46,161 bases of DNA, from the NCBI GenBank assembly GCA_036339235.1, contig JAYZCA010000101.1:1-46161 (forward strand), in the 5' to 3' direction. The stretch comes from Candidatus Latescibacterota bacterium (GTDB lineage: Bacteria > Latescibacterota > UBA2968 > UBA8231). Shown piece after piece: positions 4,441 to 32,459 of this stretch. Position 1 is the stretch's first letter, and every line of letters begins with the position of its first letter. The translations under genes and the position numbers were made by a program. The notes below the pieces were generated by a model. That model saw only the letters and a list, made by a program, of their open reading frames with translations, made no database searches and was not told where the DNA came from.

Positions 4441-6341
4441 CCCTCAGGATCGCTATCCTTGTGCTGCTCGCTGCGGCGACGGCGTGGGGTCAGAGCTACT
4501 CTTTGAATTTCAGCAAGCGGTCCGACCGGCTCACCTGGCGACCGACCTTTCCCAGCTGGAATTACTCCACTCCCGTCACACTGTCGACAGCCGGGGACTC
4601 GACGTCCATGCTGCGCCTCAACGCATCGATGTCGCTGAGCGCGATCCTCGACGAGCGGGACGGACGCAACAACTGGACCGAGACGGCCAGTATCCGCACG
4701 TCCGTGCTGTACCCGATCCTGGGACCGCGCGCCTCGGTGGGCATCACTGCGAGCATGTCGAGCCGGAACGCCACCCTGCTGAACCAGAGGACGCGCAACC
4801 AGACAATCAATTTTCGCTTCCAGTATCAGCCGCTCAGCGGCACAGACGGCATTTTCGAGGACCTTCGCTTCGATGTCGTGCCCGGGGTGATCACGGCGCG
4901 ACGCGCCAGCCCCGTGAACCCCGACAGCGTTATCGAAGAGACAGGGCTGCAGTACACAGGGTCGATGAGAACGTCCCCAGATTTCGTTCTTTTCGGCGAG
5001 CGTCTGACGACGAGCCTGTCCCTCGGCAAGACGGACAATACCCTCGAAAACAACAAGAGCCGCAGTGAAAACCTCCGTGGCAGCTCGGCCTATACGCTGC
5101 CGGGGGATGTGCGCACGAATCTCTCGTTCTCCGAGTCGCGGTCGGAGACAGGGGTGACGCGCTCCGTCATCGACAGCGCCGACACGGCGGTAGTGGCAGA
5201 GCTGTCAAAGCGCCGCAACCGGACCGTCAGTGCCTCGCTGACGACCAAGATTCACGGCTTCAACGTACGGTCGTCACAGTCGTGGTCGGAGGGCCTCAAC
5301 ACGAACACGGCTAACGCCGCCGCCGATCCGCGCAATCGGTTCTATGCCCGTGACCGCGAGAGCGAGCGCTGGAACCTGTCCGGCAACGTCGACGGACGTA
5401 TCGCCGAGGAGCTGACAGGTTCGGTGCGACTATCGTGGGCGGCGACGGACGAGAGGCGTCTGCCGGTGCCGCTGCCGACGGGTGGTGTGTATCGCGATCC
5501 CACGGATGATCGCGAGGATCGTGACCTGCAGGTTGGAGGCAGCCTGAACTGGCAACCCGCAGAGGGACATCAAATGCAGGTTTCGGCGTCGGTGCGGATG
5601 AATCGGATCGAGAATCCGGGAGCTCCCGAGCAGGATCGCGACAGCCACAACCAGGTGGCGTCCCTCACCTACCGGGGCCGGCGTGACGGCGGCATGCGCT
5701 ACGATGTCTCCCTGTCCTCGACCCGGTCCCACCGCGTCAACCTGGATGCGGCGCGGTCTGCCGACAATCAGCGTTCCAGTGAGCTGCGGCTGTCGACCAA
5801 TACCAGCTACAGCCGCATGGCGGCGCAGTTCTCTCACAACTTTGAAATATCCGCACGCCGGAGTATCTTCGATTTTGACCGTCGGGTAAACACCAAGATC
5901 GTCAACCGGCGCAGCAATATTCGCCGCGGCTGGTCGATGCGTCACACCCTCCGCCACTCCCTCTTCGAGACGCTGCAGCTGAACACGACCTACTCCTACA
6001 GCGCCGACGATCTGGGCACTCTACTGGTGGGGAACGGGTCGCAGATCGTCGAGCAGGACAACAACGACCATCGCATCAGTGTGTCGATGAATTACCGTCC
6101 GAGCGTTGCCACGAATTTCGGTGTCAGCTACAGCTACCGGCTGGACCGGCAGTGGGCGTTTTTCTACGCACGTGACACGATCGACCGCGAGCTGTCGTTC
6201 CGCAACGCGCACCGAAACCTCGCTGTCAGTATGTCGTACAAGCCCACCGGGTACACCGGGCTGACAGCTCGCGCCAGCCGCTCGCACCAGCGCAGCGGAA
6301 CCTTCGACGACCTGTCCCTGACCATCAGCCGTACGTTCTGA
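4437..6341 (+). CDS. hypothetical outer-membrane beta-barrel protein (634 aa, signal peptide, C-terminal Phe)
   Basis: ATG 4437 overlaps the rsmA stop (ATGA). N-terminus MTLRIAILVLLAAATAWGQ looks like a signal peptide. The body is an S/T/R/N-rich alternating pattern and ends ...LSLTISRTF, an OMP-like terminus. I recognise no family. Confidence 0.6.
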   Translation: MTLRIAILVLLAAATAWGQSYSLNFSKRSDRLTWRPTFPSWNYSTPVTLSTAGDSTSMLRLNASMSLSAILDERDGRNNWTETASIRTSVLYPILGPRASVGITASMSSRNATLLNQRTRNQTINFRFQYQPLSGTDGIFEDLRFDVVPGVITARRASPVNPDSVIEETGLQYTGSMRTSPDFVLFGERLTTSLSLGKTDNTLENNKSRSENLRGSSAYTLPGDVRTNLSFSESRSETGVTRSVIDSADTAVVAELSKRRNRTVSASLTTKIHGFNVRSSQSWSEGLNTNTANAAADPRNRFYARDRESERWNLSGNVDGRIAEELTGSVRLSWAATDERRLPVPLPTGGVYRDPTDDREDRDLQVGGSLNWQPAEGHQMQVSASVRMNRIENPGAPEQDRDSHNQVASLTYRGRRDGGMRYDVSLSSTRSHRVNLDAARSADNQRSSELRLSTNTSYSRMAAQFSHNFEISARRSIFDFDRRVNTKIVNRRSNIRRGWSMRHTLRHSLFETLQLNTTYSYSADDLGTLLVGNGSQIVEQDNNDHRISVSMNYRPSVATNFGVSYSYRLDRQWAFFYARDTIDRELSFRNAHRNLAVSMSYKPTGYTGLTARASRSHQRSGTFDDLSLTISRTF

Positions 6342-6389: not shown

Positions 6390-7313
6390 ATGCCCCCGAT
6401 GCCCAAGTCCGACAAAATCTGGTTCAACGGCGAACTCGTTCCCTGGGACGAGGCCCGGATTCATGTCCTTGCCCACGTCGTGCACTACGGGTCGTCGGTA
6501 TTCGAGGGGATTCGCTGCTACCACACGCAGAAAGGGCCCGCGGTATTCCGCCTGGCGGAGCACATCGACCGTCTCTTCGATTCGGCCAAGATCTACCGCA
6601 TGGAGATTCCGTACAGCCGTGATCAGATCCGCGAGGCGGTGCTCGACACGATCAGGGTCAACAAGCTGGACGCCTGTTACGTCCGCCCCATCTGCTTTCG
6701 TGGCTACGATTCTCTGGGGGTCGACCCGACGACGTGTCCCGTAGACGCGGCGATCGCCGTGTGGCACTGGGGCGAGTACCTGGGCGACGACGCCCTGAAG
6801 AAGGGTGTGTCGGTGTGCACATCGTCGTGGAACCGTTCGGCGCCCAATACCTTGCCGAACCTGGCCAAGGCCGGTGGCAACTACCTCAACTCCCAGCTGG
6901 TGCGCATGGAGGCCAATCTCAACGGCTACGATGAAGGCGTCGTACTCAGTACCGATGGACTGGTCAGCGAGGGTAGTGGCGAGAACATCTTCGCCGTGAA
7001 GGCGGGCAGGATCATCACACCCATGTCGTACCAGTCGATCCTGCCCGGACTGACGCGAAACACGGCGATCATGCTTGCCGCTGACCTGGGTATCGAGGTC
7101 GTGGAGCAGCCCATGCCGCGCGAGTTTCTCTACATCGCGGACGAGGTGTTCTTCACAGGCACAGCGGCGGAGATATCACCGATCCGCGCCATCGACCAGA
7201 TTCAGATCGGCGACGGCGCGCGTGGCCCTGTCACCGAGAAGATCCAGACCCTGTTCTTCCAGACGATCAACGCCGAGGTCGAGGATCGACACGGCTGGCT
7301 CACATTCGTCTGA
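6390..7313 (+). CDS. ilvE: branched-chain amino acid aminotransferase
   Basis: [35 protein letters not shown] and the fold-type IV PLP motifs ([15 protein letters not shown]) are present. Length is 307 aa. Confidence 0.9.
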
Positions 7314-7668
7314 TCGGTTTCCACGCTTCGCATCAAGCAGCGTCGTCCGCCAACCCGTCGTATCCCAATTGCCCAAAAACGCCCGCACAGAGGCCTACCC
7401 CGCTGGCTGCCGGCTATGACGGCTCTTCGGTACCAACATTCCCAGCCTTCCGAAGAGCCCCTGCCAAGCTCTCCGCCGGTGATTGAAACCTCCCTGGCGA
7501 ACTCGTGCAATCACAACAAAACAGATAATTATACTGCAAACAGTGCCATGATCCACTTCTGACAGGTGGACTCTCCTGGGCAAACTGGAACGGTCACGCC
7601 TGCAGCACCTACAGTATTTGGTTGCTTTTTGCCGCAAAATTCCCGACTGTTTCGTGGATCCGGCATAT

Positions 7669-7684
7669 GTAAACGCATGTTTAC
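7669..7684. promoter_or_regulatory. perfect inverted repeat GTAAAC-GCAT-GTTTAC, candidate operator upstream of the receptor gene
   Basis: Read directly from the sequence. It sits about 100 nt upstream of ATG 7782, inside the lowest-GC stretch of the window. Confidence 0.25.
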
Positions 7685-7781
7685 CTGAGAGGATTGCAGT
7701 AGAGAATAAAGGAAGCAATAGCACACAACCCGTCTAGTTGATCTCACCGAGTTGATCGCTCTCTACAGGGAGGAGCTGTCG

Positions 7782-10700
7782 ATGGACCGGAAGACCCACT
7801 GGCGCGACGCCTTCGTTGCGACGTGCCTCCTCGCCCTGGCCAGCACGGCCGCCTGGGCAGGCAATGGCAAGATTACCGGCACAGTCACGGACAATGCGAG
7901 CGGCGCACCGCTCGCCAGTGCAAGCATCGCCCTCGACGGGACGAGGCTGGGCACGGTGACCGACGATGAAGGCCAATTTTTCATACTCAACGTGCCGCCC
8001 GGCACGTACACACTCCGCGCCACATACATCGGCTACGCCGCCTACGTCATCGAAGAGGTCCGGGTTTCAGCCGACCTGACGACCGATCTAAAGGTGCGTC
8101 CGTCGACGGAAGCGATCACGACGGAAGAGGTCGTGATTCGCGCCGAGCGCCCCATCATCGACCCGAACGCGACCAACGCGGTGCGGATCATCGGTGCCGA
8201 GGATCTGGAGATTCTGCCTTTCCGCGGCGTGCAGAACGTGCTCGCCCTGCAGGCGGGAGTGGTCGAGGACGAAGGGGCCCTCCACATCCGCGGTTCCCGC
8301 AGTGACGAGATCGCCTACTACGTCGAGGGCGCCAGCGTGCGCAACGTCGTCACCGGCAATACGGCGGTAAACTTGATCGACGAGGCGCTGGCCGAAATCC
8401 AGCTGCAGGCCGGCGGCTTCAGCGCGGAGTACGGCGGCGCCACCGCCGGAATCGTCCTGCAGGAGCTCAAGACCGGCTCTAACGACCTGCACATTAGCCT
8501 TCTGTCGGAGACGGACAACTTCGCCTCCGATGGTGAGAAGTTTCTCGACACGTACTCCTACGGTTACAGCAACCAGGTCCTCACCATTCAGGGCCCTGTG
8601 CTGGGTAACGACAAGATCCGCGCCTTCGTCGCCAGTCAGCGCCGGGTGTTCGATTCAAGACGTGTGGTCTGGGACGGTTTCAACTTCGAAAACGGCGTCG
8701 ACGGCATCGACCTGACCGACACAGGTGATCGCGGCGGTCGCGTCCACTGGAAAACGGATGAGGACGGAAACAAGATTCCGGACACCCGCGACAATTTGAC
8801 GCTGACGCCAGGCAACATCGCGCACTCGGGTCGTGATGCCTACGACTTCAACGGCACGCTGGTGTTCGATTATCAGCCGGTCAAGCTGCAGATCACGGGA
8901 CTGTGGTCGGACGAGTCGCGGGAATACAACGGCGCGCCGATCCGCAACATGCTGAACACGGCGCGGCTGCCCGAGGGAGAGCATGGAACCAGCCTGATCA
9001 ACCTCAAGGCGACGCACCTGCTCGATCCGAGCATGTTCTACGAGGTCAACATCAGCCGCTATACGCAGACCCGCGAGATTTTTGATCCGGTTTTCAAGGG
9101 CAACTGGTGGGTCTACAACGACAGCTTCTCCGTGGCCAACGCCAACGCTGAGTGGGTTCCCTATAGCAACACGGGGACGAACCAGGCGCCTCTCGATTTT
9201 TCCGGATTCCCCTTCAACCGGCCCGGTACGCCCACGTCCTTGGGCGGCTCCGATCGCGGCAGTGTATACGTGAACGAAAAGGATGTCTACTGGGGACTGG
9301 GCAGCAATCTGACCAAGCAGACCGCGAACCACGAGATCAAGCTCGGGTTCGATTACCAGAAGTGGACATCGCGCCGTTACCAGGCGGTGCTCAACTCTGT
9401 AAGATCCGCCATTTCCGGTACCTACCCGAGCCTCGACGCGGTGTACGACCGCTACTATGCCGGCGAGATCGCCCAGGGCGATATCCTCGACGAGATGATC
9501 CGGGTCTCGCAGGGAAATGCTGCAGGCCAGGGCAACGAGGCGGAGTTCCAGTCGCTGCTGCGCAACACCATGCGTCACGACCATTTCGGCTACGACGTCT
9601 ACGGCAACGAGTCGGATGCATCCGGTCTGGAGGCGCCGCGCGAGCCGGTTCTCGGTACCGCCTTTATCCAGGACAAGATCGAGTACAACGATCTGATCGT
9701 GAACATCGGCCTGCGGATCGATTACTACGACGTCGACAGCTGGCGTTTCAAGGACCCGTCCTCCCCGGTGCGTGATGCCACAGGCTACACGCTCGACCTC
9801 GACTCAATGGAGAAAACGGAGACCTTTACCGAGATCAGCCCGCGCCTGGGTTTCTCCTTCCCGGTGTCGGATCGTAGCGTGTTCCATGTTCAGTACGGCC
9901 GCTTCAACCAGATGCCGGCCATGCGCAACATGTTCACCGGCGGGGCGCAGTTGGCCCAGGAGTTGGGTGGACAGAATTACATCCGTTACCCGACGGCCTT
10001 CGACATCGAGCCCATGCGCACCACGCAGTACGAAATCGGGTTTGACCGCCAGTTCAACGACGTGGCTTCCTTCGACATCACGGGCTTCTACCGCGATGTG
10101 AAGGGTCAGATCCAGGTCGCCAGGCAGGACATCGCCTCCACGGCAGTCAACGCCGAGTCCTTCAACTACCTGCAGAACGGAGACTTCGCGACGACGAAGG
10201 GACTCGAGTTCGTCTTCAAGGTGCGCCGTACGAATCGTCTGCGGACAGAGTTGCACTACACACTGTCCGACGCGCGGGGCACCGGTTCGACGACGGGATC
10301 CGGGATTTCGGGCGTCGAAAACGACACGGACCTGCCGACGGTCATCTCGCCTCTGGATTTCAACGAGACGCATCGAGGGTCGATGTATTTCGACTACCGC
10401 TTTGGCAAGAATGACGGTGGCGCGATCCTGAGCCAACTGGGCATCAACACCCTGTTCACCTTCACCAGCGGTCATAACTTCACCTTCTCCACCGGTTCGC
10501 TCGGACAGGGCGGCGCTGAAGACGGCGGCATCCTGAACAGCGTCGACGCACGCAACCGCAAGCCTCTGGAGTCGATCAATCACTCGACGACGCCGTGGAC
10601 CTTCCAGGTCGACCTGAAGATCGACAAAGGCTTCGACTTGATGGGTATGGACGCCAAGGTCTACAGCTACGTGGAGAATCTCTTCAACCGCAGAAACGAA

Positions 10701-10919
10701 GCCAATGTTTACCAGCGCACCGGTAACTCCACCGATGACGGCTTCCTGACCAACAGTGACCTGAGCAGCGAGATTATCTCGGCCACCGGTGGGCTGTCCT
10801 ACACTCGTCTCTACCAGGCCATCAACATAGCCAACCGTCAGCACTACTGGTTCAACGAGGGCGGTGATCTTCTGCGCGCGCCGAGGCAGATCCGTTTCGG
10901 CATCGAACTGGGGATCTGA
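7782..10919 (+). CDS. TonB-dependent outer-membrane receptor with N-terminal carboxypeptidase-regulatory-like domain (SusC/RagA-like architecture)
   Basis: A gggaggag RBS precedes ATG 7782. Signal peptide ...ALASTAAWAG is followed by GKITGTVTDNASGAPLASASIALDG...DDEGQFFILNVPPGTYTLRATYIGY (CarboxypepD_reg). A plug region follows (ALQAGV...IRGSRSDEIAYYVEGASV...EIQLQAGGFSAEYGGATAGIV), then a long barrel. Confidence 0.85.
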   Translation: MDRKTHWRDAFVATCLLALASTAAWAGNGKITGTVTDNASGAPLASASIALDGTRLGTVTDDEGQFFILNVPPGTYTLRATYIGYAAYVIEEVRVSADLTTDLKVRPSTEAITTEEVVIRAERPIIDPNATNAVRIIGAEDLEILPFRGVQNVLALQAGVVEDEGALHIRGSRSDEIAYYVEGASVRNVVTGNTAVNLIDEALAEIQLQAGGFSAEYGGATAGIVLQELKTGSNDLHISLLSETDNFASDGEKFLDTYSYGYSNQVLTIQGPVLGNDKIRAFVASQRRVFDSRRVVWDGFNFENGVDGIDLTDTGDRGGRVHWKTDEDGNKIPDTRDNLTLTPGNIAHSGRDAYDFNGTLVFDYQPVKLQITGLWSDESREYNGAPIRNMLNTARLPEGEHGTSLINLKATHLLDPSMFYEVNISRYTQTREIFDPVFKGNWWVYNDSFSVANANAEWVPYSNTGTNQAPLDFSGFPFNRPGTPTSLGGSDRGSVYVNEKDVYWGLGSNLTKQTANHEIKLGFDYQKWTSRRYQAVLNSVRSAISGTYPSLDAVYDRYYAGEIAQGDILDEMIRVSQGNAAGQGNEAEFQSLLRNTMRHDHFGYDVYGNESDASGLEAPREPVLGTAFIQDKIEYNDLIVNIGLRIDYYDVDSWRFKDPSSPVRDATGYTLDLDSMEKTETFTEISPRLGFSFPVSDRSVFHVQYGRFNQMPAMRNMFTGGAQLAQELGGQNYIRYPTAFDIEPMRTTQYEIGFDRQFNDVASFDITGFYRDVKGQIQVARQDIASTAVNAESFNYLQNGDFATTKGLEFVFKVRRTNRLRTELHYTLSDARGTGSTTGSGISGVENDTDLPTVISPLDFNETHRGSMYFDYRFGKNDGGAILSQLGINTLFTFTSGHNFTFSTGSLGQGGAEDGGILNSVDARNRKPLESINHSTTPWTFQVDLKIDKGFDLMGMDAKVYSYVENLFNRRNEANVYQRTGNSTDDGFLTNSDLSSEIISATGGLSYTRLYQAINIANRQHYWFNEGGDLLRAPRQIRFGIELGI

Positions 10920-10983
10920 GGTCATGAGTCAGACCAAATCCCAAGATTCAGAAATGACACTGCACGATGGAAGGAAGAGGACC

Positions 10984-13900
10984 ATGAGGATGATACCTGC
11001 TGCGGTGGCTGCGATTGCCGTCGGGGTTATGGCCCTGGCGGCACCGGCCTTCGCTCGCGACGCAAGTCCGGCGCCGGCTGCAAAGGTGGCTCAGGACGAG
11101 CGTGCCTTCGGTCAGAGCTCGCTGGTGAACATCAACAATATGTCCTACTGGTTTGTGCGGGACGGCAACTCGGCCAACAACCCCGCCAACGGCAACTCGG
11201 GCGTAACCTTTCCGAGGTCGACGGATCAGGTCATCTACCAGGATGGCATGATCTGGGGTGGTATCGTCAACGACGGTGATGCGCAGACGCTGCGCGTCGG
11301 CGGTCAGACCTACGCCGTGGGCACCGTACCTGGCCTCATCGTGGGGAATGGCGTGGGTGAGGACCCGGCCGATCCCAGTGTCCGCATCTACCGCATCCGC
11401 AAAGACTATCGCTTTGCAGACCTCAAGCTGGATTACTCGGAATTGTTCAACTTGGGACTCAGCGAGGTGACCGACGCCGATGTGGCGGCCTTGCGCGCTC
11501 AGTACGACAAGGACTGGCGCGAGTGGCCCGCGGCCAAGGGCGCGCCTTTCTACGACAACGACGGGGACGGCGTCTACACGCCCGCCTTTGACGGCAACGG
11601 CGATCCCATCTTGGACGGCACCGCCGATCAGCCGGGTGTGGCCAACGCCGACATGGTGGCCTGGTTCGCCATCAACGACCTCGACGTCGGCGCCGCCACC
11701 AGCCTCTACGGTTCCAAGCCGATCGGCCTGGAGATCCAGATCACGATCTGGGGCTACGCCCGCACCGATGAGCTGGGTGACGTCATCTTCAAGAAGTACC
11801 AGGTCACCTACGAAGGCACGGCCACCACGCCGGACGACGCCGTCATCAACGACATGTATTTCGCGCAATGGTCGGATCCCGACCTCGGCGACTACGGTGA
11901 CGACTTCGCCGGCGGCGATGTCGAGTTGAGTCTCGGCTACGTATACAACGGGCAGGCAGACGACTCGCACTACGTCGGTTTTGGCCTGGCGCCGCCGGCG
12001 GCGGGGTATGATTTTCTGCAGGGCCCGATCGTTCCCGTCTACCTGAAGGACGATGCGGGCGCCAACCAGCTCGACGACGACGGCAACCCGATTCTCGACC
12101 TGAGCGCCGAGGCCATTTATAACTTCGGGAGGCGCCCGGGCTACAAGAACCTGCCGATGACGTCCTACGTATTCTTCGCTGCCGGCAGCGCCATCGGCGA
12201 TCCGGAACTGGGCGAATACGTGGGCACCGAAGAGTGGTACAACCTGCTGCGCGGATTCCAGCCGCAACCGGACATCAACAACCCCGTACCCTTCGTCAAC
12301 CCGCTCACCGGTGAGGAGACCAAGTTCACCCTCGACGGCGATCCCACGACCGCCGCCGGCTGGAACGACGGCATCCCGCTGCCCGCGGGCGACCGCCGCA
12401 TCGTTCTCGACACGGGCCCATTTACCATGGCCCTGGGTGACACTCAAGAGGTCGTGGTTGCCCTTCTTGGCGCCATCTCTACGGACCGGCTGCGCAGCGT
12501 GGCCAAGCTGAAGTTCACCGATCAGTTTGTGCAGGACGCCTACAACAGCTTCTTCCAGGTTGCGTCGCCGCCGGCGTCGCCGAATGTGCGCGTGGCGCAG
12601 CTGGATCAGGCCATCGTGCTGGATTGGGGCTGGAACCCGATCTCGGTGGCCGAGACCGAGAACGTGGCTTCACCCGGGTTCGAGTTCGAAGGCTACAACG
12701 TATATCAGAAGCCCGCAGCTGAATCCAGCCTCGATAACAGCGTCCTTCTGGGCACGTTCGATAAGGAGAACGGGGTTACCACGCTTCTCGGTATCGATCT
12801 GGATCCGGTCTCGGGAATCGTTCTCAACGTACCAAAACAGGTGGGCACCGACTTCGGCATCCGTCGGAACCTGACGATTACGAAGGACGCTGTCCGCGGC
12901 GGGCCGCTCGTCAACGGCCAGGACTACTACTTTGCCGTGACGGCCTACAACCGCGCCACCGGAGAGGCGTCGGCGGTTACGACTCTGGAGAGCCCCGGTC
13001 TGTTGCAGATCAGCAAGCCGCAAGATCCGCCCGTCGGCTCCCGGTATTCGTCGGATGCGGCGCAGGTCATTGCCGGCACTCACACAGCTGGCGCCAGCGA
13101 CGGCTCGGCGACAGCCACGGTAGTCGACCCGACCCAGACAACGGGTCATGACTACCAGGTAACCTTCGACACCGACGCCGACGGCAACGTCACGTGGTCA
13201 TTGAGCGACCTGACCATGAATGCGTCGCTTGTCACGGACCAGACCAATCAGACGGGTCAGGCAGTGTATATCGGTGCGGACGGCTTCGAGATCGCAGTCA
13301 ATGGCCCGCCCAACGGTATGAAGGCCTGGGGGGCTCCCGAGACGACCTTCGCGGCCAGCGGCCTCAGCCTCGCAGAATTCAGCGCTCAGTCCACCGGCAG
13401 CAGTGCCACTCGATGGTTTACGTGGGCCAACGCCGACTTCGGTACCGAGGGTTTCTCGGGCGCCATGACTGGCGACATCAATGGCAATTGGTTCGAGCCA
13501 TCTCCTGTGACCCCGGCGGATCTGCGCACCGTGGAACTGCGCTTTACCGCGGTGAACGAGGCGGAGGGAGAGGACCAGTACAAACCTCTGGATCTGGCCA
13601 ACGAAAACGTCTCCTACGCTTACCGATACCTGCGAGGAGCCGGGAACGACCCGCCGGCACAGGCTGACATGACCTCCACCGAAGCCCCATGGGACGTGAG
13701 CAAATACATCATCAACGCTGAGGGTCCGGGGGCCTACGTTTACCAAGAACGGGTGCCCATCGCCCTGTCGGCGTGGGACATCGAGGCTGATCCACCGCGC
13801 CGGCTGGCCGTCGGGTTCCTCGAAAACAACGCGCCCGGCGGGCTGGTGAACGGCGCCTATGGCCCGGCATTCTACAACACAGTAGGCAACGTCGCGGGAG

Positions 13901-14505
13901 ACGGTCCTCGTGAGTGGCTGTTCATCTTCGATGCGGACTACACCGAGTTGGGTAACAACAACTCGTTGCTGACCGATTTCGGCTTGCTGCCGAATGCCAC
14001 CGGCGATGCCACCGAGCCGATCATTCCGATCATGTGGGCGATCTTCGCGGGTCGGCGTATTCCCGATCGGTTCCCTCAGGACGGCTTCCAGTTTTTGCTG
14101 ATGGCCAACCACGTCAACACAGCCAGCGACGTGTTCAACATCAGCGTCGCAGGGGTTGAGACGTCGGACGCGTTCCTTGCGGAGGACATCAAAAAGATCA
14201 CCGCCTTCCCGAATCCGTACTTCGGGGTGAACTCGGCCGAAGTCAGCCGCTACAACCACTTCGTCACCTTCAGCCATCTGCCGAACAAGGTCTCGATTCG
14301 AGTGTTCGACCTGTCCGGCACGTTGGTGCAGCGGCTCGACAAGGACGACAACGATCAGTTCCTGCGCTGGGATCTGGACAATGAGAACGGTTTGCCCGTG
14401 GCCAGCGGCATGTATTTCGTGCACATCGACATGCCCGATATCAACAAGACGAGAATCCTGAAGCTGGCCGTCGTCGGCGAGCAGCAGTTCCTCGAGAATT
14501 TCTAA
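10984..14505 (+). CDS. large secreted/surface protein with Fn3-like region and T9SS-type C-terminal sorting domain
   Basis: RBS ggaaggaagagg lies upstream of ATG 10984, giving signal peptide MRMIPAAVAAIAVGVMALAAPAFA. ATG 10924 is an alternative start. C-terminus is AFPNPYF...VSIRVFDLSGTLVQRL...WDLDNENGLPVASGMYFVHIDM...KLAVV, the T9SS type A CTD pattern. Confidence 0.75.
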   Translation: MRMIPAAVAAIAVGVMALAAPAFARDASPAPAAKVAQDERAFGQSSLVNINNMSYWFVRDGNSANNPANGNSGVTFPRSTDQVIYQDGMIWGGIVNDGDAQTLRVGGQTYAVGTVPGLIVGNGVGEDPADPSVRIYRIRKDYRFADLKLDYSELFNLGLSEVTDADVAALRAQYDKDWREWPAAKGAPFYDNDGDGVYTPAFDGNGDPILDGTADQPGVANADMVAWFAINDLDVGAATSLYGSKPIGLEIQITIWGYARTDELGDVIFKKYQVTYEGTATTPDDAVINDMYFAQWSDPDLGDYGDDFAGGDVELSLGYVYNGQADDSHYVGFGLAPPAAGYDFLQGPIVPVYLKDDAGANQLDDDGNPILDLSAEAIYNFGRRPGYKNLPMTSYVFFAAGSAIGDPELGEYVGTEEWYNLLRGFQPQPDINNPVPFVNPLTGEETKFTLDGDPTTAAGWNDGIPLPAGDRRIVLDTGPFTMALGDTQEVVVALLGAISTDRLRSVAKLKFTDQFVQDAYNSFFQVASPPASPNVRVAQLDQAIVLDWGWNPISVAETENVASPGFEFEGYNVYQKPAAESSLDNSVLLGTFDKENGVTTLLGIDLDPVSGIVLNVPKQVGTDFGIRRNLTITKDAVRGGPLVNGQDYYFAVTAYNRATGEASAVTTLESPGLLQISKPQDPPVGSRYSSDAAQVIAGTHTAGASDGSATATVVDPTQTTGHDYQVTFDTDADGNVTWSLSDLTMNASLVTDQTNQTGQAVYIGADGFEIAVNGPPNGMKAWGAPETTFAASGLSLAEFSAQSTGSSATRWFTWANADFGTEGFSGAMTGDINGNWFEPSPVTPADLRTVELRFTAVNEAEGEDQYKPLDLANENVSYAYRYLRGAGNDPPAQADMTSTEAPWDVSKYIINAEGPGAYVYQERVPIALSAWDIEADPPRRLAVGFLENNAPGGLVNGAYGPAFYNTVGNVAGDGPREWLFIFDADYTELGNNNSLLTDFGLLPNATGDATEPIIPIMWAIFAGRRIPDRFPQDGFQFLLMANHVNTASDVFNISVAGVETSDAFLAEDIKKITAFPNPYFGVNSAEVSRYNHFVTFSHLPNKVSIRVFDLSGTLVQRLDKDDNDQFLRWDLDNENGLPVASGMYFVHIDMPDINKTRILKLAVVGEQQFLENF

Positions 14506-14536
14506 GCCAGCACCAAGTCAGAAGGAGATCAAACGA

Positions 14537-15577
14537 ATGACACGTAATTTCAAGATCGCCTCCGCGGCGCTGGCTCTGGTCCTGGTGGTGTGTGCCGCGG
14601 ACATGGCGCACGCTGCCGGCCAGAATCGAGCCGGCACAGCCAGCGCTACGGAACTGTTGATCCCCGTCGGGGCTCGGGACATGGCCATGGGAGGTTCTTC
14701 GGTAGCCACCACAACCGGACTCTCCGCCCTGTTCTGGAACCCGGCTGGATTGTCCCGGTCCGCCAATAACACCGATGTGATGGTGTCATCCATGTCGTAC
14801 CTGGCGGACGTCCGGGTAAACTACGTCGCCTTGGGCAGTCGCTTCACTTCCATCGGGTCCTTCGCGCTCGACATCAAGTCCCTGGACTTCGGGGACATTC
14901 CCATTACCACCGAAGAGCGACCGGACGGAACGGGTGGTACCTACACACCCACCTTCTTCACCGTGGGGCTGCACTACTCCCGGGCGTTGACCGATCGCAT
15001 TTCGGTGGGTGGAACATCGCACTACGTCGTCAACAAGATCGAGCGTGTCGACGGCACCGCCCTGTCCTTCAGCGCCGGTCTGCAATACAGTGACCTGGCC
15101 GAAATCGAAGGGCTCAACCTCGGTGTGGCGGTGAAGCACATCGGTCAGCGCATGCAGTACGACGGTGCCGGCCTGCTGCGTCGTGGTTCCCTCGACGACC
15201 TGCGCCGGCCGCCGTCGGACTACAAGGTGCAGTCTTCGTCGTCAGACCTGCCGTCGATTTTCGAGATCGGCCTCGGTTACCGCTACAATCCGGCCGGACT
15301 CGGTCAGGTCAACCTCTCAACGGTGTTCCGGCACAACAACTACACCTACGACCAGTACCGCAGCGGTGTCGAGTACGTGCTCAACGACATGTTCACGCTT
15401 CGTGGCGGCTTTGACGTGGCTGACGGTTCCGGAGACGATTATCTCTTCGGCACCAGTTTCGGCTTCGGCATTCAGAGCGACTTGGGCAGCTTCAAGGACG
15501 TGCGTGTGGACTACGCCTACACTTCAGTCGACCTGTTCGATGCTCTCAACACGTTTACCTTCCAGGTGGGCTTCTGA
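14537..15577 (+). CDS. PorV/PorQ (FadL-like) family outer-membrane barrel protein
   Basis: An aaggag RBS and a signal peptide ending AHA are present. N-terminal motif is ELLIPVGARDMAMGGSSVATTTGLSALFWNPAGLS. The protein has alternating beta-strand character and ends ...NTFTFQVGF. Confidence 0.7.
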   Translation: MTRNFKIASAALALVLVVCAADMAHAAGQNRAGTASATELLIPVGARDMAMGGSSVATTTGLSALFWNPAGLSRSANNTDVMVSSMSYLADVRVNYVALGSRFTSIGSFALDIKSLDFGDIPITTEERPDGTGGTYTPTFFTVGLHYSRALTDRISVGGTSHYVVNKIERVDGTALSFSAGLQYSDLAEIEGLNLGVAVKHIGQRMQYDGAGLLRRGSLDDLRRPPSDYKVQSSSSDLPSIFEIGLGYRYNPAGLGQVNLSTVFRHNNYTYDQYRSGVEYVLNDMFTLRGGFDVADGSGDDYLFGTSFGFGIQSDLGSFKDVRVDYAYTSVDLFDALNTFTFQVGF

Positions 15578-15581
15578 GAGT

Positions 15582-16607
15582 ATGCGGCTGAAACAGGCAG
15601 TAGCAGTGTTTGGGGCCACCCTCCTTCTGGGGGGTGGCCTCTTCGCTTTCGGTTGCCAGAGTTCTGCCCTGGCATCGGGCAAGCTCTACATGAAGCAGAA
15701 GAAGTATGACAAGGCCCGCGTACAGCTCGAACTCGCCGTGGAGGTGGAGCCTGGGAACGCAGAAGCCCACTACAACCTGGGACGAATCTGCGGGTTGCAG
15801 GGAGATTACGTGGAGCTGGCCGTTGCTTTCGACCGTTCCCAGGAACTGAGTCCCGATTTCGACGAGGAGATCACCGGCGAGCGACTGCACTACTGGTCGA
15901 GGAGTTACAACGATGGAGTGCGCGCCGCCGCCGGACGGGGGGCGGACTTGGTCACGGCTCGCAGACACTTCGATACGGCCATCCGGATCCTTCCCGAACG
16001 GCTCAAGGCCTGGCGCAACCGCGCCTCCGTCGACTACCAACTCGGCGATATGGACGCGGCCCTCGCTGGCTACGGGCACGTCCTTGAGCTGGCTCCGGAG
16101 GACACGACGACGGCGCGTGTCATGGGCGTCATCTACCTGGGTGAAGAGCGCTACGATGAGGCGGTGGCCAGCTTCGAGCATGTCCTACAGTACGGCGAGC
16201 ACCGCGGGGCGTTGGTCAACCTTGCCAGCACGCAGATGCAGTGGGGGCAGAACGATGCGGCCGTGGCGAGTCTGCAGCGCGCCCTGGTCCTGGATCCCGC
16301 CTGTTTTGTCTGTCACTACAACCTGGGCAACCTGTACTGGTCCACCGAGGCCCATCCGCAGGCGCTCGAGAGTTTCCGCAGTGCTGTCGAGCTAAGGGCG
16401 GATGACGTGGATGCCCGGTTCAACCTCGCCATCACCCACCTGGTCATGGAAGACCTCGACGCCGCCCAGCCTCTACTGGAAACGCTGTCCGTCGACGACC
16501 CGGACAATGGAATCGTGTGGCGCGAACTGGGCCGCATCTACGCCCTGCAGGCGCGAATCCCCGAGAGCGAGGCGGCATACGAAAGAGCCGAGGCCCTCGG
16601 CCAGTAA
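15582..16607 (+). CDS. tetratricopeptide-repeat lipoprotein
   Basis: MRLKQAVAVFGATLLLGGGLFAFGC is lipobox-like. Repeated TPR units follow (AEAHYNLGRI.., AWRNRASVDYQLGDMDAALAGY.., CHYNLGNLYW.., ARFNLAITH..). The tracked 15165 start lies inside the previous gene. Confidence 0.8.
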   Translation: MRLKQAVAVFGATLLLGGGLFAFGCQSSALASGKLYMKQKKYDKARVQLELAVEVEPGNAEAHYNLGRICGLQGDYVELAVAFDRSQELSPDFDEEITGERLHYWSRSYNDGVRAAAGRGADLVTARRHFDTAIRILPERLKAWRNRASVDYQLGDMDAALAGYGHVLELAPEDTTTARVMGVIYLGEERYDEAVASFEHVLQYGEHRGALVNLASTQMQWGQNDAAVASLQRALVLDPACFVCHYNLGNLYWSTEAHPQALESFRSAVELRADDVDARFNLAITHLVMEDLDAAQPLLETLSVDDPDNGIVWRELGRIYALQARIPESEAAYERAEALGQ

Positions 16608-16633
16608 ACTAGAAAACAGGCAAGACGTCATTT

Positions 16634-16672
16634 GCTGCGGCGGGTCCATAGGATTCGCCGCAGCGTTTTTTT
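16634..16672 (+). terminator. rho-independent terminator between convergent genes
   Basis: GCTGCGGCG, a 13-nt loop, CGCCGCAGC, then G and a T7 run. It sits just after the TPR gene stop, and the T-run abuts the stop of the minus-strand gene. Confidence 0.6.
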
Positions 16673-17402
16673 ACATCACATGCAGCCAGTCGTCGAGTAG
16701 AAAGCTGATGCGGCCGATCAGCAACGACAGGCGGGCCATGATCGTGTAGCCGAAGGACGCCCCGAAAGAGACCATCAGGAACCAGATACCCAGTCGCGCC
16801 GCGTGTCCCACTGTCCCCGTGTGTTCTACCGAGAAGAAGAAGTAGACGAGGACCGTAATCACGCCGATGAGGACGAGGAGCAGGTTGAGACCTGCCCAAC
16901 TCATGCTCAGGGGCGCCAGACTTGGTTCGACCTGACCCAGCAGAAAGGATGACATGTAACGAGGAATGGTAAGGCCGGCGCCCACGCCGACGACGAAGGC
17001 GAAGGAGATCCGGCTCAGCCAGCCGAACTTGCTCGAGAAGCGGGTCAGCATCAGCAGGCCGAGAAGGGTGGGAAAGAGCAAGACCCACGGGTTGTGGCCG
17101 CCGCCGCTGGCACCCTCGGCGCCGATGTCGAAGTAGCTGACGAGGATCTCACCGTAGAGCGAGTTGTACCAGGTGATGCCGAAGATATAGGCCGCTGCGA
17201 CGCCGACGTAGACGTGCTCGGCAAACTTGAACAGCGGGTTGTCCTTGTACAGGAAGCTGTAGAGCGCCAGGGTGCAGCCGGCTGCGACGATGACGCCGAT
17301 GCCGTCCCAGTCGAGGGCCAGCACGCCGCTGGCCACGAGGCTGGCGTTGGCGACGGCGAACAGCCCGAGGAAGCCGATCAATACATAGCTGTCTTTGGTC
17401 AT
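16671..17402 (-). CDS. hypothetical polytopic membrane protein (last gene of minus-strand operon)
   Basis: RBS aaggggag lies upstream of the ATG giving MTKDSYVLIGFLGLFAV.... There are multiple hydrophobic segments. The opposite-strand ORFs are R/D/G-rich shadows. Confidence 0.65.
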   Translation of the reverse strand: MTKDSYVLIGFLGLFAVANASLVASGVLALDWDGIGVIVAAGCTLALYSFLYKDNPLFKFAEHVYVGVAAAYIFGITWYNSLYGEILVSYFDIGAEGASGGGHNPWVLLFPTLLGLLMLTRFSSKFGWLSRISFAFVVGVGAGLTIPRYMSSFLLGQVEPSLAPLSMSWAGLNLLLVLIGVITVLVYFFFSVEHTGTVGHAARLGIWFLMVSFGASFGYTIMARLSLLIGRISFLLDDWLHVM

Positions 17403-17415
17403 AACGGCGCTCCCC

Positions 17416-18246
17416 TTAGGCTTTTCCACCGCGACGACGGGTCGTGAAGTAGACCCCGTTGCCGAGCACGATGAAAAGGATGATGATGAGGTGGCTCACC
17501 GACTGCGGTTCCATACCGGCCGTGGCACTGCCCGGAGCCTCGATGAGGGTCTCGTATTCGGCGGCGCCGGCGAGCCCGCCCAGCAGACCGACGAGCTGTT
17601 TCGACTGCAGAAAGGGATACAGGTCGGGCGCCATCACGGCGGTACAGCCACCGGCAAACGGAAACCGGTGCTTCTCCTGGCCGAAGGGGATCCACCAGAA
17701 CTCCATCGAGTCGCCGGCGGCGAAGTCGAAGACGAAGGAGAAGTCCTTCAGGTTCCTTACGCCCTTCAGCACGGCCAATTCCCCCACCGGCGTACCTGCC
17801 GCGTCGAAGGGGAAGGTACCGGCCAGGCTCTGACCCAGATTCAGGACCACTGCCAGGTTGCCCGGCTTGTATCCAAGGAAGGCATAGTCGGCGCCGTACT
17901 CCATGCCAAACTCAACTGCCAACTCGTCCATGATCGGCTGAGCGATGCCGACGGCTTCGGGCCAAAGACAGATGCCGACGACCTTTCGACCGCGACTGAA
18001 CAGGTGCCGCAGGATGGCCCGCGTCATCGGCACCATTTCGGGCACGGTGCTGGCTCCGTAGGAGAAGCTGACGAGGACCGGTCGGTCGGCATCTTCGACG
18101 CTGATGCGTTCGATCTCGTCGTACACCGAGCGCACCGTCGGCGTCGGCTTGATCGGCAGGGGAATGTCGACCAGCAAGGGGATGGCGATACCCAGGAAGA
18201 TGAAGATGAAGATGATGCGGCGGTCGATGTTGATCAGGCGGTCCAT
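17416..18246 (-). CDS. hypothetical bitopic protein (N- and C-terminal TM helices flanking a ~200-aa soluble domain)
   Basis: MDRLINIDRRIIFIFIFLGIAIPLL... and ...HLIIILFIVLGNGVYFTTRRRGG. The start ATG shares a base with the upstream stop (TGATG). Confidence 0.65.
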   Translation of the reverse strand: MDRLINIDRRIIFIFIFLGIAIPLLVDIPLPIKPTPTVRSVYDEIERISVEDADRPVLVSFSYGASTVPEMVPMTRAILRHLFSRGRKVVGICLWPEAVGIAQPIMDELAVEFGMEYGADYAFLGYKPGNLAVVLNLGQSLAGTFPFDAAGTPVGELAVLKGVRNLKDFSFVFDFAAGDSMEFWWIPFGQEKHRFPFAGGCTAVMAPDLYPFLQSKQLVGLLGGLAGAAEYETLIEAPGSATAGMEPQSVSHLIIILFIVLGNGVYFTTRRRGGKA

Positions 18247-18902
18247 CAGTCACCTCCTCCGCCCAAATACGAGCGCTCGATACCGAAGATGATACGCAGC
18301 GACGTGGCGATGGCGCCGAGGCTGACACCCATCAGGATGCCACGCTTGGCAGCCATGTTGGGCACCGACATGAGCCATTGCATCGTATCGGGGATGACGT
18401 CAGAGATATAGGCGCCGATGGGCACGCGACCGAGCATGACTATGATCGCCGATACCAGCAGGATCGCCGCCTCCGGTGTCCGGGCTCGAAAGGTCCGGTA
18501 GGCGGCCGACGAGATGTAGAAGGCGAGCATGGAGAACATCGTCGCCGAACTGGCCACGTGGATGCTGGTGAACATCCACTGATAGGGCCCGGTCGTGGCC
18601 TGCGAAGTGAAAGGTCCATTGCCGTCGTTGTAGACGACGAAGAGAAACATCACGCCGAAGCTGATGTAAACGATGAGGCTGTAGGCCCACCCTGCCTGTC
18701 GTTGCCGGATCTTCGACCAGTGAAGACTGAGAAGGCTGACAAGGCCGAGGATATAGGCGAAAGCGTAGACCAGACGCAGCCACAGAGCGAACTCGCGCTC
18801 CACCGACTGAGCCCACTCGTGCGGGACATAGTAGATGGCGAATCCAGTCATGCCGAAGGCGAAGCAGAAGAGGAAGGGCAGGGTGCGTGTCATGAACAGC
18901 AT
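18246..18902 (-). CDS. hypothetical polytopic membrane protein
   Basis: An aggagag RBS is present and about 5-6 hydrophobic helices can be read (FLFCFAFGMTGFAIYY, LVYAFAYILGLVSLLSL, ...). I recognise no family. Confidence 0.65.
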   Translation of the reverse strand: MLFMTRTLPFLFCFAFGMTGFAIYYVPHEWAQSVEREFALWLRLVYAFAYILGLVSLLSLHWSKIRQRQAGWAYSLIVYISFGVMFLFVVYNDGNGPFTSQATTGPYQWMFTSIHVASSATMFSMLAFYISSAAYRTFRARTPEAAILLVSAIIVMLGRVPIGAYISDVIPDTMQWLMSVPNMAAKRGILMGVSLGAIATSLRIIFGIERSYLGGGGD

Positions 18903-18913
18903 CGGTCTCTCCT

Positions 18914-20116
18914 CTACAGGGCGGCGAACAGGTGAGTCAGAAAGTCGACGCCGAACGATGCTACCACCGTGCCGACGAAGAGGAGTCCGATGAGCAGCGC
19001 CTTGCCGACGTCCTGGCCCTTCAAGCTGCCGAGCAACTTCGGCTCCTTGGAGAGGTAGGCGCTGGCCGCGTAAAGCTCCTCACCCATGAGCGTGTAGTCG
19101 CAGGTCGTGACGAAAAAAGGCAATTGGGTATAGGCGTCTGTGCCGGCGATCTGGATGGCGCCGGTGGTACTACCCGTCTCGGCCAGCAACAGCGACTCGG
19201 CGTAGAAGTAACCCATCATGACATGCGCCGCCGGCCTCTCGCGGACCATCATGCCCGCCACGGCAGCGGCGTAGGAAAACTGTTCGGTGGCGGCCATGAA
19301 GACGCTGTCCGGGCGATAGGCGTCAGGACGTCCCTCCTTCAAGTAGGCCTCCTTCACCACCTCCTGGCTCACCGACATGACCACAGGATCGACGTTGGCG
19401 ACGCGCAGGTCGGTGTCGAAGCGCGCCGTGCGCTGGGCCACGCGCCCGAGGATGTTGACGGCGGCGATCGTCGGGATCTGGTCCATGCCCTTCAGGCCGT
19501 GAACGAACAACACCGACTTGCCCATCTCCGTCGCCCGCCCGAGGGCCTCGTCGAGCGCCTCCAGCCCGGCGATGCGCCGGATGAACAGGTCCTTGCGGCG
19601 GGCTATGGAGATGAAGAACAGGATACAGACGGACAGGCCGATGGTGAGGACGATGTTGTTCCACTTGGCCGTGTTGAACCAGTTGCCACCCGGTACGGCC
19701 GACGCCACCTCGCCGAGCACCTCACCCGTGGAGGTCTGCGCGCCGAGGCGGACGAAATAGAGGGTGCCGTCCTGCAAGGGAGCGGGCTCGTCGGTCTCTC
19801 CCACGGCATAGTCGGTGATATGGACGACGTGAAAGCGTTCGTTGTCGTCGTCGTAGCCGAACAGGGCCGGCTCACCCGACTTCAACCCGGGAGTCGCCGA
19901 TTCCACCGCCAGTCGGAAAGGCCCGTCGGCGGCCGTCGCCACATAGACGCGGTAGCCGGACACCACCGCTGTCTCGGCTCGTGGCCAGGTGATCGTCAGG
20001 CTGGCCCCGGCGTCGTTCGGTGTATCGAAGGCCACGATGTCGACGGGAACCTGGGCTCCGGCGGCGACATGGAGCGCCACGCCGGCGACTGCGATCCAAG
20101 ACGCGATCTTGCTCAA
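18914..20116 (-). CDS. hypothetical membrane protein: signal peptide, Fn3-like ectodomain, TM, ~230-aa cytoplasmic domain, C-terminal TM
   Basis: A TTG start at 20116 is preceded by aaggagag, giving MSKIASWIAVAGVALHVAAGAQ. The alternative GTG 20143 overlaps the upstream stop. LTITWPRAE..SGYRVYVA looks Fn3-like. TM helix NNIVLTIGLSVCILFFISIA is present. Confidence 0.65.
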   Translation of the reverse strand: MSKIASWIAVAGVALHVAAGAQVPVDIVAFDTPNDAGASLTITWPRAETAVVSGYRVYVATAADGPFRLAVESATPGLKSGEPALFGYDDDNERFHVVHITDYAVGETDEPAPLQDGTLYFVRLGAQTSTGEVLGEVASAVPGGNWFNTAKWNNIVLTIGLSVCILFFISIARRKDLFIRRIAGLEALDEALGRATEMGKSVLFVHGLKGMDQIPTIAAVNILGRVAQRTARFDTDLRVANVDPVVMSVSQEVVKEAYLKEGRPDAYRPDSVFMAATEQFSYAAAVAGMMVRERPAAHVMMGYFYAESLLLAETGSTTGAIQIAGTDAYTQLPFFVTTCDYTLMGEELYAASAYLSKEPKLLGSLKGQDVGKALLIGLLFVGTVVASFGVDFLTHLFAAL

Positions 20117-20139
20117 ACCGTCTCTCCTTGAATGGACAC

Positions 20140-21267: not shown

Positions 21268-21268
21268 G

Positions 21269-27720: not shown

Positions 27721-27768
27721 TGATCCGATTTCAGGTTTGATCAGGTAGAGACCCACCGTTATATTCCT

Positions 27769-28266: not shown

Positions 28267-28270
28267 GTTC

Positions 28271-28360
<90 letters not shown>

Positions 28361-28383
28361 TTCACCTCGCACACGGTCGAGGT

Positions 28384-28476
28384 GGAGAGGTGACCGAGTG
28401 GTCGAAGGTGCACGACTGGAAATCGTGTGTAGCGTTTATAGCGCTACCGTGGGTTCGAATCCCACTCTCTCCGCCA
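28384..28476 (+). tRNA. tRNA-Ser (anticodon GGA)
   Basis: Acceptor GGAGAGG, anticodon stem-loop CACGA-CTGGAAA-TCGTG, long variable arm, T-arm GTGGGTTCGAATCCCAC and an encoded CCA. Confidence 0.9.
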
Positions 28477-28493
28477 TTTTCTACAAGTTCTGT

Positions 28494-28569: not shown

Positions 28570-28641
28570 TTTTTCTCCGCAGGAGCCCGTTGGCAAGAGG
28601 CCAGGACCTTGGCTGCATCGACGGGTTCCCGCGTTTCTACT

Positions 28642-32397: not shown

Positions 32398-32459
32398 CAG
32401 CTTTGCCGCTGTGGCATCGCTGGCACGAAACCGACCCGAGGGGAGTTGAGACGACGACC

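Follow-up and report, generated by a model that had tools for sequence, protein, structure and literature searches.

A conserved gene triad encoding a TonB-dependent transporter, a surface protein with a type IX sorting domain and a PorV/PorQ-family barrel: a candidate capture-and-import module of Latescibacterota and related phyla

Analysis of a 46,161 nt contig from a Candidatus Latescibacterota bacterium (assembly GCA_036339235.1, contig JAYZCA010000101.1, positions 1 to 46,161, referred to here as the window) reveals a cluster of four genes, the first three of which constitute a strongly conserved triad whose order is maintained far beyond chance across several phyla of the Fibrobacterota–Chlorobiota–Bacteroidota (FCB) group. 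All four lie on the + strand, and are predicted to encode a TonB-dependent transporter (TBDT) of 1045 aa (G1, 7782–10919), a Sec-exported multidomain surface protein of 1173 aa (G2, 10984–14505), an outer-membrane barrel of the PorV/PorQ family of 346 aa (G3, 14537–15577), and a lipoprotein of 341 aa with tetratricopeptide repeats (TPR; G4, 15582–16607). We tentatively propose, with somewhat less than even confidence, that G2 is a surface binding protein that is delivered through a type IX secretion system (T9SS), held at the cell surface by its cognate barrel G3, and serves the adjacent transporter G1.

The case for a functional unit begins with gene order. A scan of one genome per species yielded at least 599 candidate stretches, at least 577 of which were confirmed by tblastn, and the best 78 loci among these confirmed relatives were compared in detail. 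They derive from Latescibacterota, metagenome-assembled genomes (MAGs) labelled as Gemmatimonadota, Ignavibacteria, Calditrichota, Kryptonia, KSB1, and Bacteroidota MAGs. In 70 of the 73 loci with enough flanking sequence a G1 homologue is located directly upstream of G2 and on the same strand, and in 66 of 69 the gene directly downstream of G2 is a G3 homologue. Identity to the window proteins declines together for G1, G2 and G3, to about 30–47% in the other phyla. The triad also appears to duplicate as a whole, because the two copies within one MAG (L039 and L045) are mutual nearest neighbours for each of the three genes; locus L059 contains two complete triads in tandem (6537–23015), and several MAGs carry two. 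One locus has a different arrangement, with two tandem G2 paralogues (L060:1598–8268) and no receptor detected upstream. The synteny anticipated by the original prediction is thus present in several FCB phyla, and of the outcomes it named as counting against it we find neither a C-terminal domain that fails the hidden Markov model (HMM) for type-A sorting domains nor a gene order not conserved in relatives. We found no description of the triad in the full-text literature searched, and genome papers on Caldithrix and Latescibacteria do not mention it; the three-gene combination, its breadth among FCB phyla, the N-terminal domain family for which there is no model, and the swappable cassette described below are undescribed in that literature.

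G1 has the parts expected of a TBDT: a signal peptide, a CarboxypepD_reg-type N-terminal extension (NTE, residues 31–119), a TonB-box-like motif EEVVIRAERP (residues 115–124), a plug (residues 130–223) and a large β-barrel. It matches the Pfam family CarbopepD_reg with 70.6 bits (and CarbopepD_reg_2 with an E value of 1.2e-19), and its plug matches Plug (PF07715) with 26.1 bits against a cutoff of 23.9, a family also matched by all 14 of the aligned relatives. The barrel of the window protein has no Pfam match at E ≤0.01, including to PF25183 (OMP_b-brl_4), which we take to be an Oar-type barrel model; among the 14 relatives, six match PF00593 (best E value 3.7e-31) and three match PF25183 (best E value 1.6e-18). 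When a profile of the family (14 members) is compared with the PDB, the matches are the barrel of PhuR (4.3e-10), the plug of CirA and, for RagA and SusC, their NTE domains. The TonB-box-like motif, with the pattern (V/I)x(I/V)(V/I)AERP, lies between the NTE and plug in 14 of 14 relatives; it is a motif without HMM support, and one that we take, from its position and pattern, to resemble the TonB boxes of SusC-type receptors. This motif, the plug motifs and the C-terminal β-signal are kept from Latescibacterota to Ignavibacteria and Bacteroidota MAGs, and the retention of the TonB-box-like motif and plug across phyla suggests that energised transport by G1 is under selection.

The receptor had been described in the original prediction as having SusC architecture, and this is correct for the NTE and plug but not for family membership, as G1 scores 65.2 bits against the SusC/RagA model TIGR04056 with a cutoff of 368.25, and the match covers only residues 30–155 (the NTE and the start of the plug). 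We conclude from these matches that G1 is a genuine TBDT and not a SusC; its family is divergent, and its N-terminal part resembles that of SusC. The lack of a SusD, to which the prediction had also drawn attention, is less anomalous because G1 is not a SusC/RagA member. There is no SusD-like gene among the scanned neighbouring open reading frames (ORFs) of the window, and G2, which has a Sec-type signal peptide (...APAFA/RD), has neither a lipobox nor a SusD Pfam match.

The second element of the argument is the C-terminal domain (CTD) of G2 (14206–14502, + strand), a T9SS type-A sorting domain with a family-specific insertion after the PNP motif and a 9–11-residue tail, ...GEQQFLENF in the window. 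That G2 bears a T9SS-like sorting domain, as predicted, is borne out by TIGR04183, against which the whole protein scores 24.5 bits and the isolated CTD 29.9 (cutoff 23). The Pfam model Por_Secre_tail (PF18962) gives 16.2 bits on G2, below its cutoff of 27, and relatives of G2 match it weakly in 13 of 33 cases, and the related FlgD_ig model in 20 of 33. Across 39 CTDs of the family, the CTD part of the PorZ model is matched by all 39, TIGR04183 by 38 (E ≤0.01) and the PorU CTD by 26, and the only T9SS-related matches of the CTD in the PDB are PorZ (5m11, E value 0.0045) and PorU (6za2, E value 0.12). The domain is unusually well conserved between phyla, all of the type-A motifs are present, and the tail, QEQQ(F/I/V)L..(F/Y), is found in all phyla and reaches past the end of the aligned PorZ. 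G2 was considered as a possible PorZ orthologue and rejected; its match to the PorZ equivalog NF052228 (41.6 bits, cutoff 260) is confined to the CTD (model positions 667–756), and the fold of its passenger is unlike the two β-propellers of PorZ.

In well-studied T9SS organisms, cargo leaving the translocon is shuttled by PorV, which binds the CTDs, whereas PorZ retains its CTD to sit on PorQ, and PorU does so on PorV; it has been proposed that CTDs are shielded from cleavage by cognate PorV-like barrels, and perhaps similarly for type-B CTDs and PorP/SprF-like barrels (PMC10202324). The idea in the original prediction that a cargo protein with its own PorV-like barrel is unprecedented must consequently be given up, since PorZ–PorQ, PorU–PorV and the type-B CTD pairs are already known (PMC10202324). 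By analogy with PorZ–PorQ and PorU–PorV, and because of the family-specific conservation of the CTD, we infer that the CTD of G2 may be retained on G3.

G3 itself was correctly predicted to be a PorV/PorQ-family barrel. It matches the family model NF033709 with 150.1 bits against a cutoff of 90 (residues 36–344) and Pfam PorV with 39.5 against 27, the latter being the only family listed at E values up to 0.01. None of the more specific models reaches its cutoff: the PorQ equivalog NF033711 is the best of them (80.4 bits, cutoff 220), the PorV equivalog NF033710 gives 66.2 (cutoff 250) with only the N-terminal two-thirds of the protein, and PorV2 gives 46 (cutoff 325). A profile of the G3 family aligns in the PDB with Flavobacterium johnsoniae PorV (6h3i_F, 3.9e-21), and weakly with TodX/FadL. 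From these scores G3 is assigned as a predicted 14-strand-type outer-membrane barrel of the PorV/PorQ family, an orthologue of neither PorV nor PorQ.

Most of G2 lies outside the reach of existing family models. A Pfam scan of the protein finds no domain above threshold, the first ~1050 residues have no Pfam or NCBIfam model, and comparison of the sequence with the PDB gives only the weak PorZ CTD match and chance matches. There are 1376 homologues in the protein collection, mostly of 1080–1175 aa; where a name is given it reads 'hypothetical' or 'T9SS type A sorting domain-containing', and the source is a Latescibacteria or Gemmatimonadetes MAG. An AlphaFold2 (AF2) model of full-length G2 is mostly β (mean predicted local distance difference test score, pLDDT, of 68), and a Foldseek search with it returns PorZ as the top and only significant match, driven by the CTD, together with generic immunoglobulin (Ig) folds.

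The N-terminal conserved domain (residues 40–535; 11101–12588, + strand) is a β-supersandwich that, modelled alone from 95 sequences, is predicted with high confidence (pLDDT 90.9, predicted TM-score 0.92). Its Foldseek matches in the PDB are the N-terminal β-sandwiches of dextran dextrinase (9ju0, E value 6e-7), GH116 β-glucosidases, GH94 phosphorylases and GH65 enzymes, all of them remote (TM 0.25–0.35, root-mean-square deviation 7–11 Å). The domain has no counterpart to the (α/α)6 catalytic domains of these enzymes, and the aligned G2 homologues have no invariant His or Cys outside the CTD. Because the fold is matched without an (α/α)6 domain, we describe the modelled domain as carbohydrate-binding-like and probably non-catalytic. 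In a phmmer search against sequences clustered at 50% identity, 4622 cluster representatives match it at E ≤1e-3 and 1126 at ≤1e-30; the domain starts at about residues 35–60 in nearly all of the 150 best matches, and full-length members are mostly 1000–1400 aa long. It is followed by an Fn3-like β-sandwich, an Ig-like sandwich, a poorly conserved region (residues ~700–1050) and then the CTD. The Fn3-like stretch that had been noticed near YNVYQ is indeed a confidently predicted sandwich (residues ~536–680; 12589–13023, + strand; AF2 β-strands with pLDDT ~80–92), in which FEGYNVYQ and the Fn3-type motif YYFAVTAYN are invariant or nearly so among G2 homologues; it has no match to Pfam fn3.

The poorly conserved region of G2 (13081–14133, + strand) is the least conserved part of the protein, and has the properties of a variable cassette. 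In pairs of closely related Latescibacterota proteins, residues 45–650 are 88–95% identical and the CTD 89–98%, and the cassette is only 23–39% identical. There are at least three unrelated types of cassette, with carriers that include L005, L016, L019, L026 and L056. The clearest swap is between L005 and L016, where G1 is 97% and G3 95% identical; in other swapped pairs G3 is 87–96% and G1 80–94% identical (about 80% for G1 in two of them). Because the cassette is divergent while the backbone stays near-identical, these comparisons indicate that it is exchanged by recombination, with no compensating change in either barrel. This pattern is as expected for an outward-facing module that would contact neither G1 nor G3, and the cassette may set specificity or evade phage.

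G4 is the least constant member of the cluster. It matches many TPR families of Pfam (e.g. TPR_1, 1.6e-35), and its signal peptide ends in LFAFGC; reading of the sequence reveals no acidic surface-export motif past the Cys, and G4 probably faces the periplasm. A G4 homologue is found by tblastn in 25 of the 78 loci, all of the Latescibacterota type and with a G2 at least 51% identical to that of the window. The prediction of a TPR lipoprotein in the module therefore holds for the window, where the gene directly follows G3, and does not extend to the conserved core; judging by its distribution, G4 is lineage-specific, and it is a putative accessory. An identity of G4 with PorW/SprE was rejected (17.6 bits, cutoff 250), the resemblance being generic TPR similarity.

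The organisation of the four genes agrees with the co-directional arrangement and 4–64 nt spacing that had been reported for them, the gaps being 64 nt (G1/G2), 31 nt (G2/G3) and 4 nt (G3/G4). Start codons were set from the context of the ribosome binding site and from alignment with the N-termini of homologues. G1 is preceded by a 468 nt non-coding spacer (7314–7781, + strand) with no ORF of coding-like G+C content at third codon positions (GC3), presumed to hold a promoter or leader, and G4 is followed after 26 nt by a strong intrinsic terminator (16633–16665, in an element spanning 16633–16675, + strand) with a 15-bp stem (10 GC pairs), a 3-nt loop and a tail of seven Ts. Because of the short gaps, the upstream spacer and this terminator, the four genes look like one transcription unit, as the prediction of a single operon-like unit had it. 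The G1–G4 ORFs have high GC3 (0.72–0.82) in a window of ~63% G+C, and the ORFs that overlap them out of frame are the kind of shadow that GC-rich DNA typically produces. Rfam families, riboswitches included, have no match 5′ of G1 at the gathering score or at E ≤1, and a scan with the sigma-70 consensus finds no site in the upstream spacer, the count being no higher than in shuffled sequence. In a comparison aimed at a conserved promoter or operator, conservation upstream of G1 is seen only with the closest relative, L021, which has a short block of the spacer (~7611–7660) in common with the window.

Comparison with known systems places the module between several of them. Like the SusCD utilisomes, it has a large TBDT with a CarboxypepD_reg-type NTE, TonB-box-like motif and plug beside a big surface partner with carbohydrate-binding-like and Ig/Fn3 domains, and occurs in several paralogous copies per genome; unlike them, it has a receptor that fails the SusC/RagA HMM, neither SusD nor carbohydrate-active enzymes (CAZymes) in the triad, and a partner that, rather than being a lipoprotein, carries a T9SS CTD and comes with a PorV/PorQ-like barrel of its own. 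With the PorZ–PorQ and PorU–PorV pairs of Porphyromonas gingivalis it shares a type-A CTD resembling those of PorZ and PorU, and a barrel whose best specific model is PorQ, but the G2 passenger is unrelated to the PorZ β-propellers, G3 is an orthologue of neither barrel, the two genes lie side by side next to that of a TBDT, and retention of the CTD is in this case conjectural. Type-B CTD proteins with PorP/SprF-like barrels (SprB–SprF) likewise combine a T9SS cargo with a neighbouring, dedicated 14-strand barrel for secretion or anchorage (PMC10202324); here, in contrast, the CTD is of type A, the barrel belongs to the PorV/PorQ rather than PorP/SprF family, and a TBDT is included. BtuB–BtuG and other complexes of a TBDT with a surface lipoprotein in Bacteroides provide a non-SusC TBDT served by a dedicated surface ligand-capture protein encoded next to it (PMC10404256); the partner is a β-propeller lipoprotein, and neither a T9SS signal nor a second barrel is known to be involved. 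In Myxococcus xanthus, Oar is a CarboxypepD_reg TBDT functionally tied to a secreted protein, PopC (PMC6434023), but it acts in the export of a protease that has no CTD, no PorV-like barrel is known to be involved, and the window G1 does not match PF25183. Finally, in the BamG–BamH part of the Bacteroidota β-barrel assembly machinery (BAM), a 14-strand barrel of the FadL/PorV fold holds a surface protein beside a larger barrel (PMC12578637; PMC12611786), although BamG is of the FadL/Toluene_X type and binds a lipoprotein and BamA, unlike G3, a PorV/PorQ-family protein encoded beside a CTD protein and a TBDT. By analogy, the module would work like a TBDT–surface-partner complex (SusCD, BtuB–BtuG) joined to an anchoring pair of the PorZ–PorQ type. 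It belongs to the broader families (TBDT plug and barrel, T9SS type-A CTD, PorV/PorQ) and is a strict member of none of these systems, because the cutoffs for SusC/RagA, PorV, PorQ and PorZ are all failed.

The mechanism we favour can be set out as follows. G2 would cross the inner membrane through Sec, as its signal peptide indicates, and then, as the type-A CTD implies, the outer membrane by way of a T9SS translocon whose genes lie elsewhere. Its specialised CTD would escape cleavage and stay on the dedicated barrel G3, in the manner of PorZ–PorQ and PorU–PorV, leaving G2 tethered beside G1, where the N-terminal domain and Fn3 part would present a ligand, most likely a glycan or glycoconjugate; in effect G2 would stand in for the lid formed by a SusD-type lipoprotein. 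G1, which retains an intact and conserved TonB-box-like motif, plug and barrel, would import the ligand with TonB energy. The cassette would be an exposed module swapped by recombination with no effect on G1 or G3, and G4 a periplasmic accessory specific to Latescibacterota. The capture-and-import role is suggested by gene linkage and by the intact TonB-box-like and plug motifs. To call such a device self-contained, as the original prediction did, is an overstatement, because the CTD implies a translocon elsewhere and no T9SS core gene is seen among the scanned ORFs of the window.

Several observations weigh against this proposal. No genes for SprA/Sov or PorK/L/M/N were found in the 46-kb window (among longer, GC3-filtered ORFs scanned mostly with Pfam, and with NCBIfam where unannotated), and, judged by ORF size, the 78 fetched loci contain no ORF of the SprA size class (at least 1300 aa). 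In the literature searched, Latescibacteria and the T9SS were not found together and no T9SS is reported for the phylum. The structural matches of the N-terminal domain are distant, and a β-supersandwich fold is no proof of sugar binding. The domain is ~45–55% identical between phyla; SusD-like binders are usually far less conserved, and conservation this strong would also suit a conserved function in the envelope. The distance matrices of G1, G2 and G3 correlate (r = 0.89–0.93), but the correlations are confounded by shared phylogeny. A survey of 116 flanking proteins from 31 non-Latescibacterota loci reveals no enrichment of CAZymes or peptidases, and the recurrent neighbours are instead DUF4397 lipoproteins, GWxTD proteins and housekeeping genes. 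Lastly, the whole of G1 and the first ~520 codons of G2 are missing from L021 (Latescibacterota Fu_MAG_110, ~87% nucleotide identity), a locus that runs from an aminotransferase gene and the spacer straight into the middle of G2, with L021:9685–10001 corresponding to 7317–12549 of the window; the gap reflects either a real deletion or an error in the assembly of the MAG. As to the translocon, SprA is reported to be specific to the FCB group and general to its phyla, being absent only from Chlorobiota (PMC12611786), which is indirect support for a T9SS in the host genome; canonical Por_Secre_tail domains are present in four of the 116 flanking proteins of other phyla.

One competing explanation is that G3 acts only as a dedicated shuttle, helping this single large cargo away from the T9SS translocon as PorV does, in which case the CTD would be cleaved, G2 would be released or linked to lipopolysaccharide, and G1 would take up whatever G2 produces or binds without forming a stable complex with it. 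The membership of G3 in the PorV/PorQ family and its alignment with PorV, and a CTD that has all of the type-A motifs and passes TIGR04183, are consistent with such a role, and in the systems that have been characterised PorU removes most type-A CTDs (PMC10202324). We nonetheless consider it unlikely. The CTD is conserved beyond what a generic signal needs and has an invariant extra tail, its best matches are the two retained CTDs of PorZ and PorU, and G3 falls well below the PorV equivalog cutoff. A different kind of explanation is that the triad is a constitutive envelope structure, such as a coat, an adhesin or a biogenesis complex, in which the TonB-dependent barrel would be an anchor or signal transducer and not an importer, and G2 would be the major exposed protein with a cassette that varies to escape phages or grazers. 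The housekeeping context of the genes (in the window recA, alaS, metK, dnaX and recR, and at loci of other phyla serA and ssb), the lack of CAZyme or peptidase clusters nearby, and the conservation of the N-terminal domain and receptor between phyla all fit such a structure; replacement of a cassette through recombination is a typical trait of exposed antigens, and FadL/PorV-like barrels are known to hold surface proteins in roles other than transport, as in BamG–BamH (PMC12578637). The strict conservation of the TonB-box-like motif and plug across phyla argues instead that transport is selected, and several diverged or tandem copies per genome are more typical of substrate-specific uptake, so that we rate this explanation as improbable too.

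It is also conceivable, and in our view very improbable, that G1 exports G2 in the manner of Oar and that G3 catches and holds the PorZ-like CTD, making the triad a secretion-and-display unit independent of the canonical T9SS. Three of the 14 G1 relatives match PF25183, presumably the Oar-type barrel, and no T9SS core gene is seen in the window or the flanks; moreover, Oar is itself a TBDT with a CarboxypepD_reg N-terminal domain that is required for protein secretion (PMC6434023). Set against this, G2 has a bona fide type-A CTD closely related to its counterparts in PorZ and PorU, which suggests export by the SprA route, SprA being reported as general to FCB phyla other than Chlorobiota (PMC12611786), and passage of a folded protein of 125 kDa through a plugged barrel of 22 strands is unlikely. 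If G1 did export G2, the triad would represent an unrecognised route of protein export in non-Bacteroidota FCB phyla, with a swappable head cassette. To the notion that four unrelated envelope genes are adjacent only incidentally we give almost no credence, because the synteny across several phyla excludes chance adjacency, and the triad duplicates as a unit.

TBDTs that work with surface proteins are the main route of polymer harvest in Bacteroidota, and in every characterised case that we know of or found in the literature searched the partner is a lipoprotein. The module described here suggests a second build, with a T9SS-delivered partner pinned by an uncleaved CTD to a private PorV/PorQ-type barrel. 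It occurs widely, with relatives in at least 577 species-level genomes and 4622 clusters for the N-terminal domain, mostly in uncultured FCB phyla. If the proposal of capture and import is true, it would give a large protein family that lacks a model its function, extend the principle that a cognate barrel keeps the CTD from PorZ–PorQ to nutrient uptake, and provide a natural system of exchangeable cassettes for receptor specificity or for diversification under phage pressure.

The surroundings of the triad offer several further observations. Glycoside hydrolases, polysaccharide lyases and carbohydrate esterases are absent from the 25 commonest Pfam families of the flanks, there are no CAZymes in the window, and the window locus lacks the combination of a SusC/SusD pair with glycan-degrading enzymes or sensors that defines a polysaccharide utilisation locus (PUL). 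The only glycan-related neighbour seen is in a Bacteroidota MAG (L054:1943–5125), a Reg_prop/Y_Y_Y/His_kinase sensor of the PUL-regulator type located ~1.8 kb upstream of the triad. Outside Latescibacterota, a DUF4397 lipoprotein, with or without a CHRD domain, is encoded directly upstream of the receptor in 12–13 loci; genes of this type are at L032, L035, L036, L038, L039, L043, L045, L049, L053, L058, L066, L067 and L069, and in some the DUF4397 gene is fused to CHRD domains. After the barrel comes a GWxTD-domain protein in nine loci and NHL-repeat proteins in four. The DUF4397, GWxTD and NHL-repeat proteins may be further components at the cell surface.

The − strand of the window carries a second conserved cluster at 16671–23107, convergent with the operon. 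It encodes a GlmL/MutL-like actin-fold ATPase (21269–23107), a 375-aa ORF, a DUF6754 protein (18914–20143) and three multi-pass membrane proteins with no family match. In 19 Latescibacterota loci the last four genes of this cluster are directly upstream of the TBDT gene and on the same strand (with a gap of 33 nt in L005), and the cluster in the window is inverted relative to these. It may be an inner-membrane partner of the module or reflect mere ancestral synteny.

Elsewhere in the window there is a gene of the PcrB family (geranylgeranylglyceryl phosphate synthase-like; 36671–37417, + strand) and one for a CDP-alcohol phosphatidyltransferase (31349–31948, + strand), which recall the reported potential of FCB bacteria for archaeal-type ether lipids (PMC7852524). 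The RecA ORF (32079–33551, + strand) is 490 aa long with its RecA domain starting at residue 146, indicating either an N-terminal extension or a longest-ORF start set too far upstream. A stretch at 28271–28910 (+ strand) encodes tRNA-Ser(CGA), tRNA-Ser(GGA) and tRNA-Ala(CGC), followed by the large signal recognition particle RNA; a 292-aa ORF on the opposite strand (27535–28413, −) overlaps the first tRNA and is probably partly spurious. Two further ORFs with coding-like GC3, one of 689 aa (4272–6341, + strand) and one of 701 aa (42614–44719, + strand), have no Pfam or NCBIfam match, and the former is kept beside the aminotransferase gene in L001, L002 and L021.

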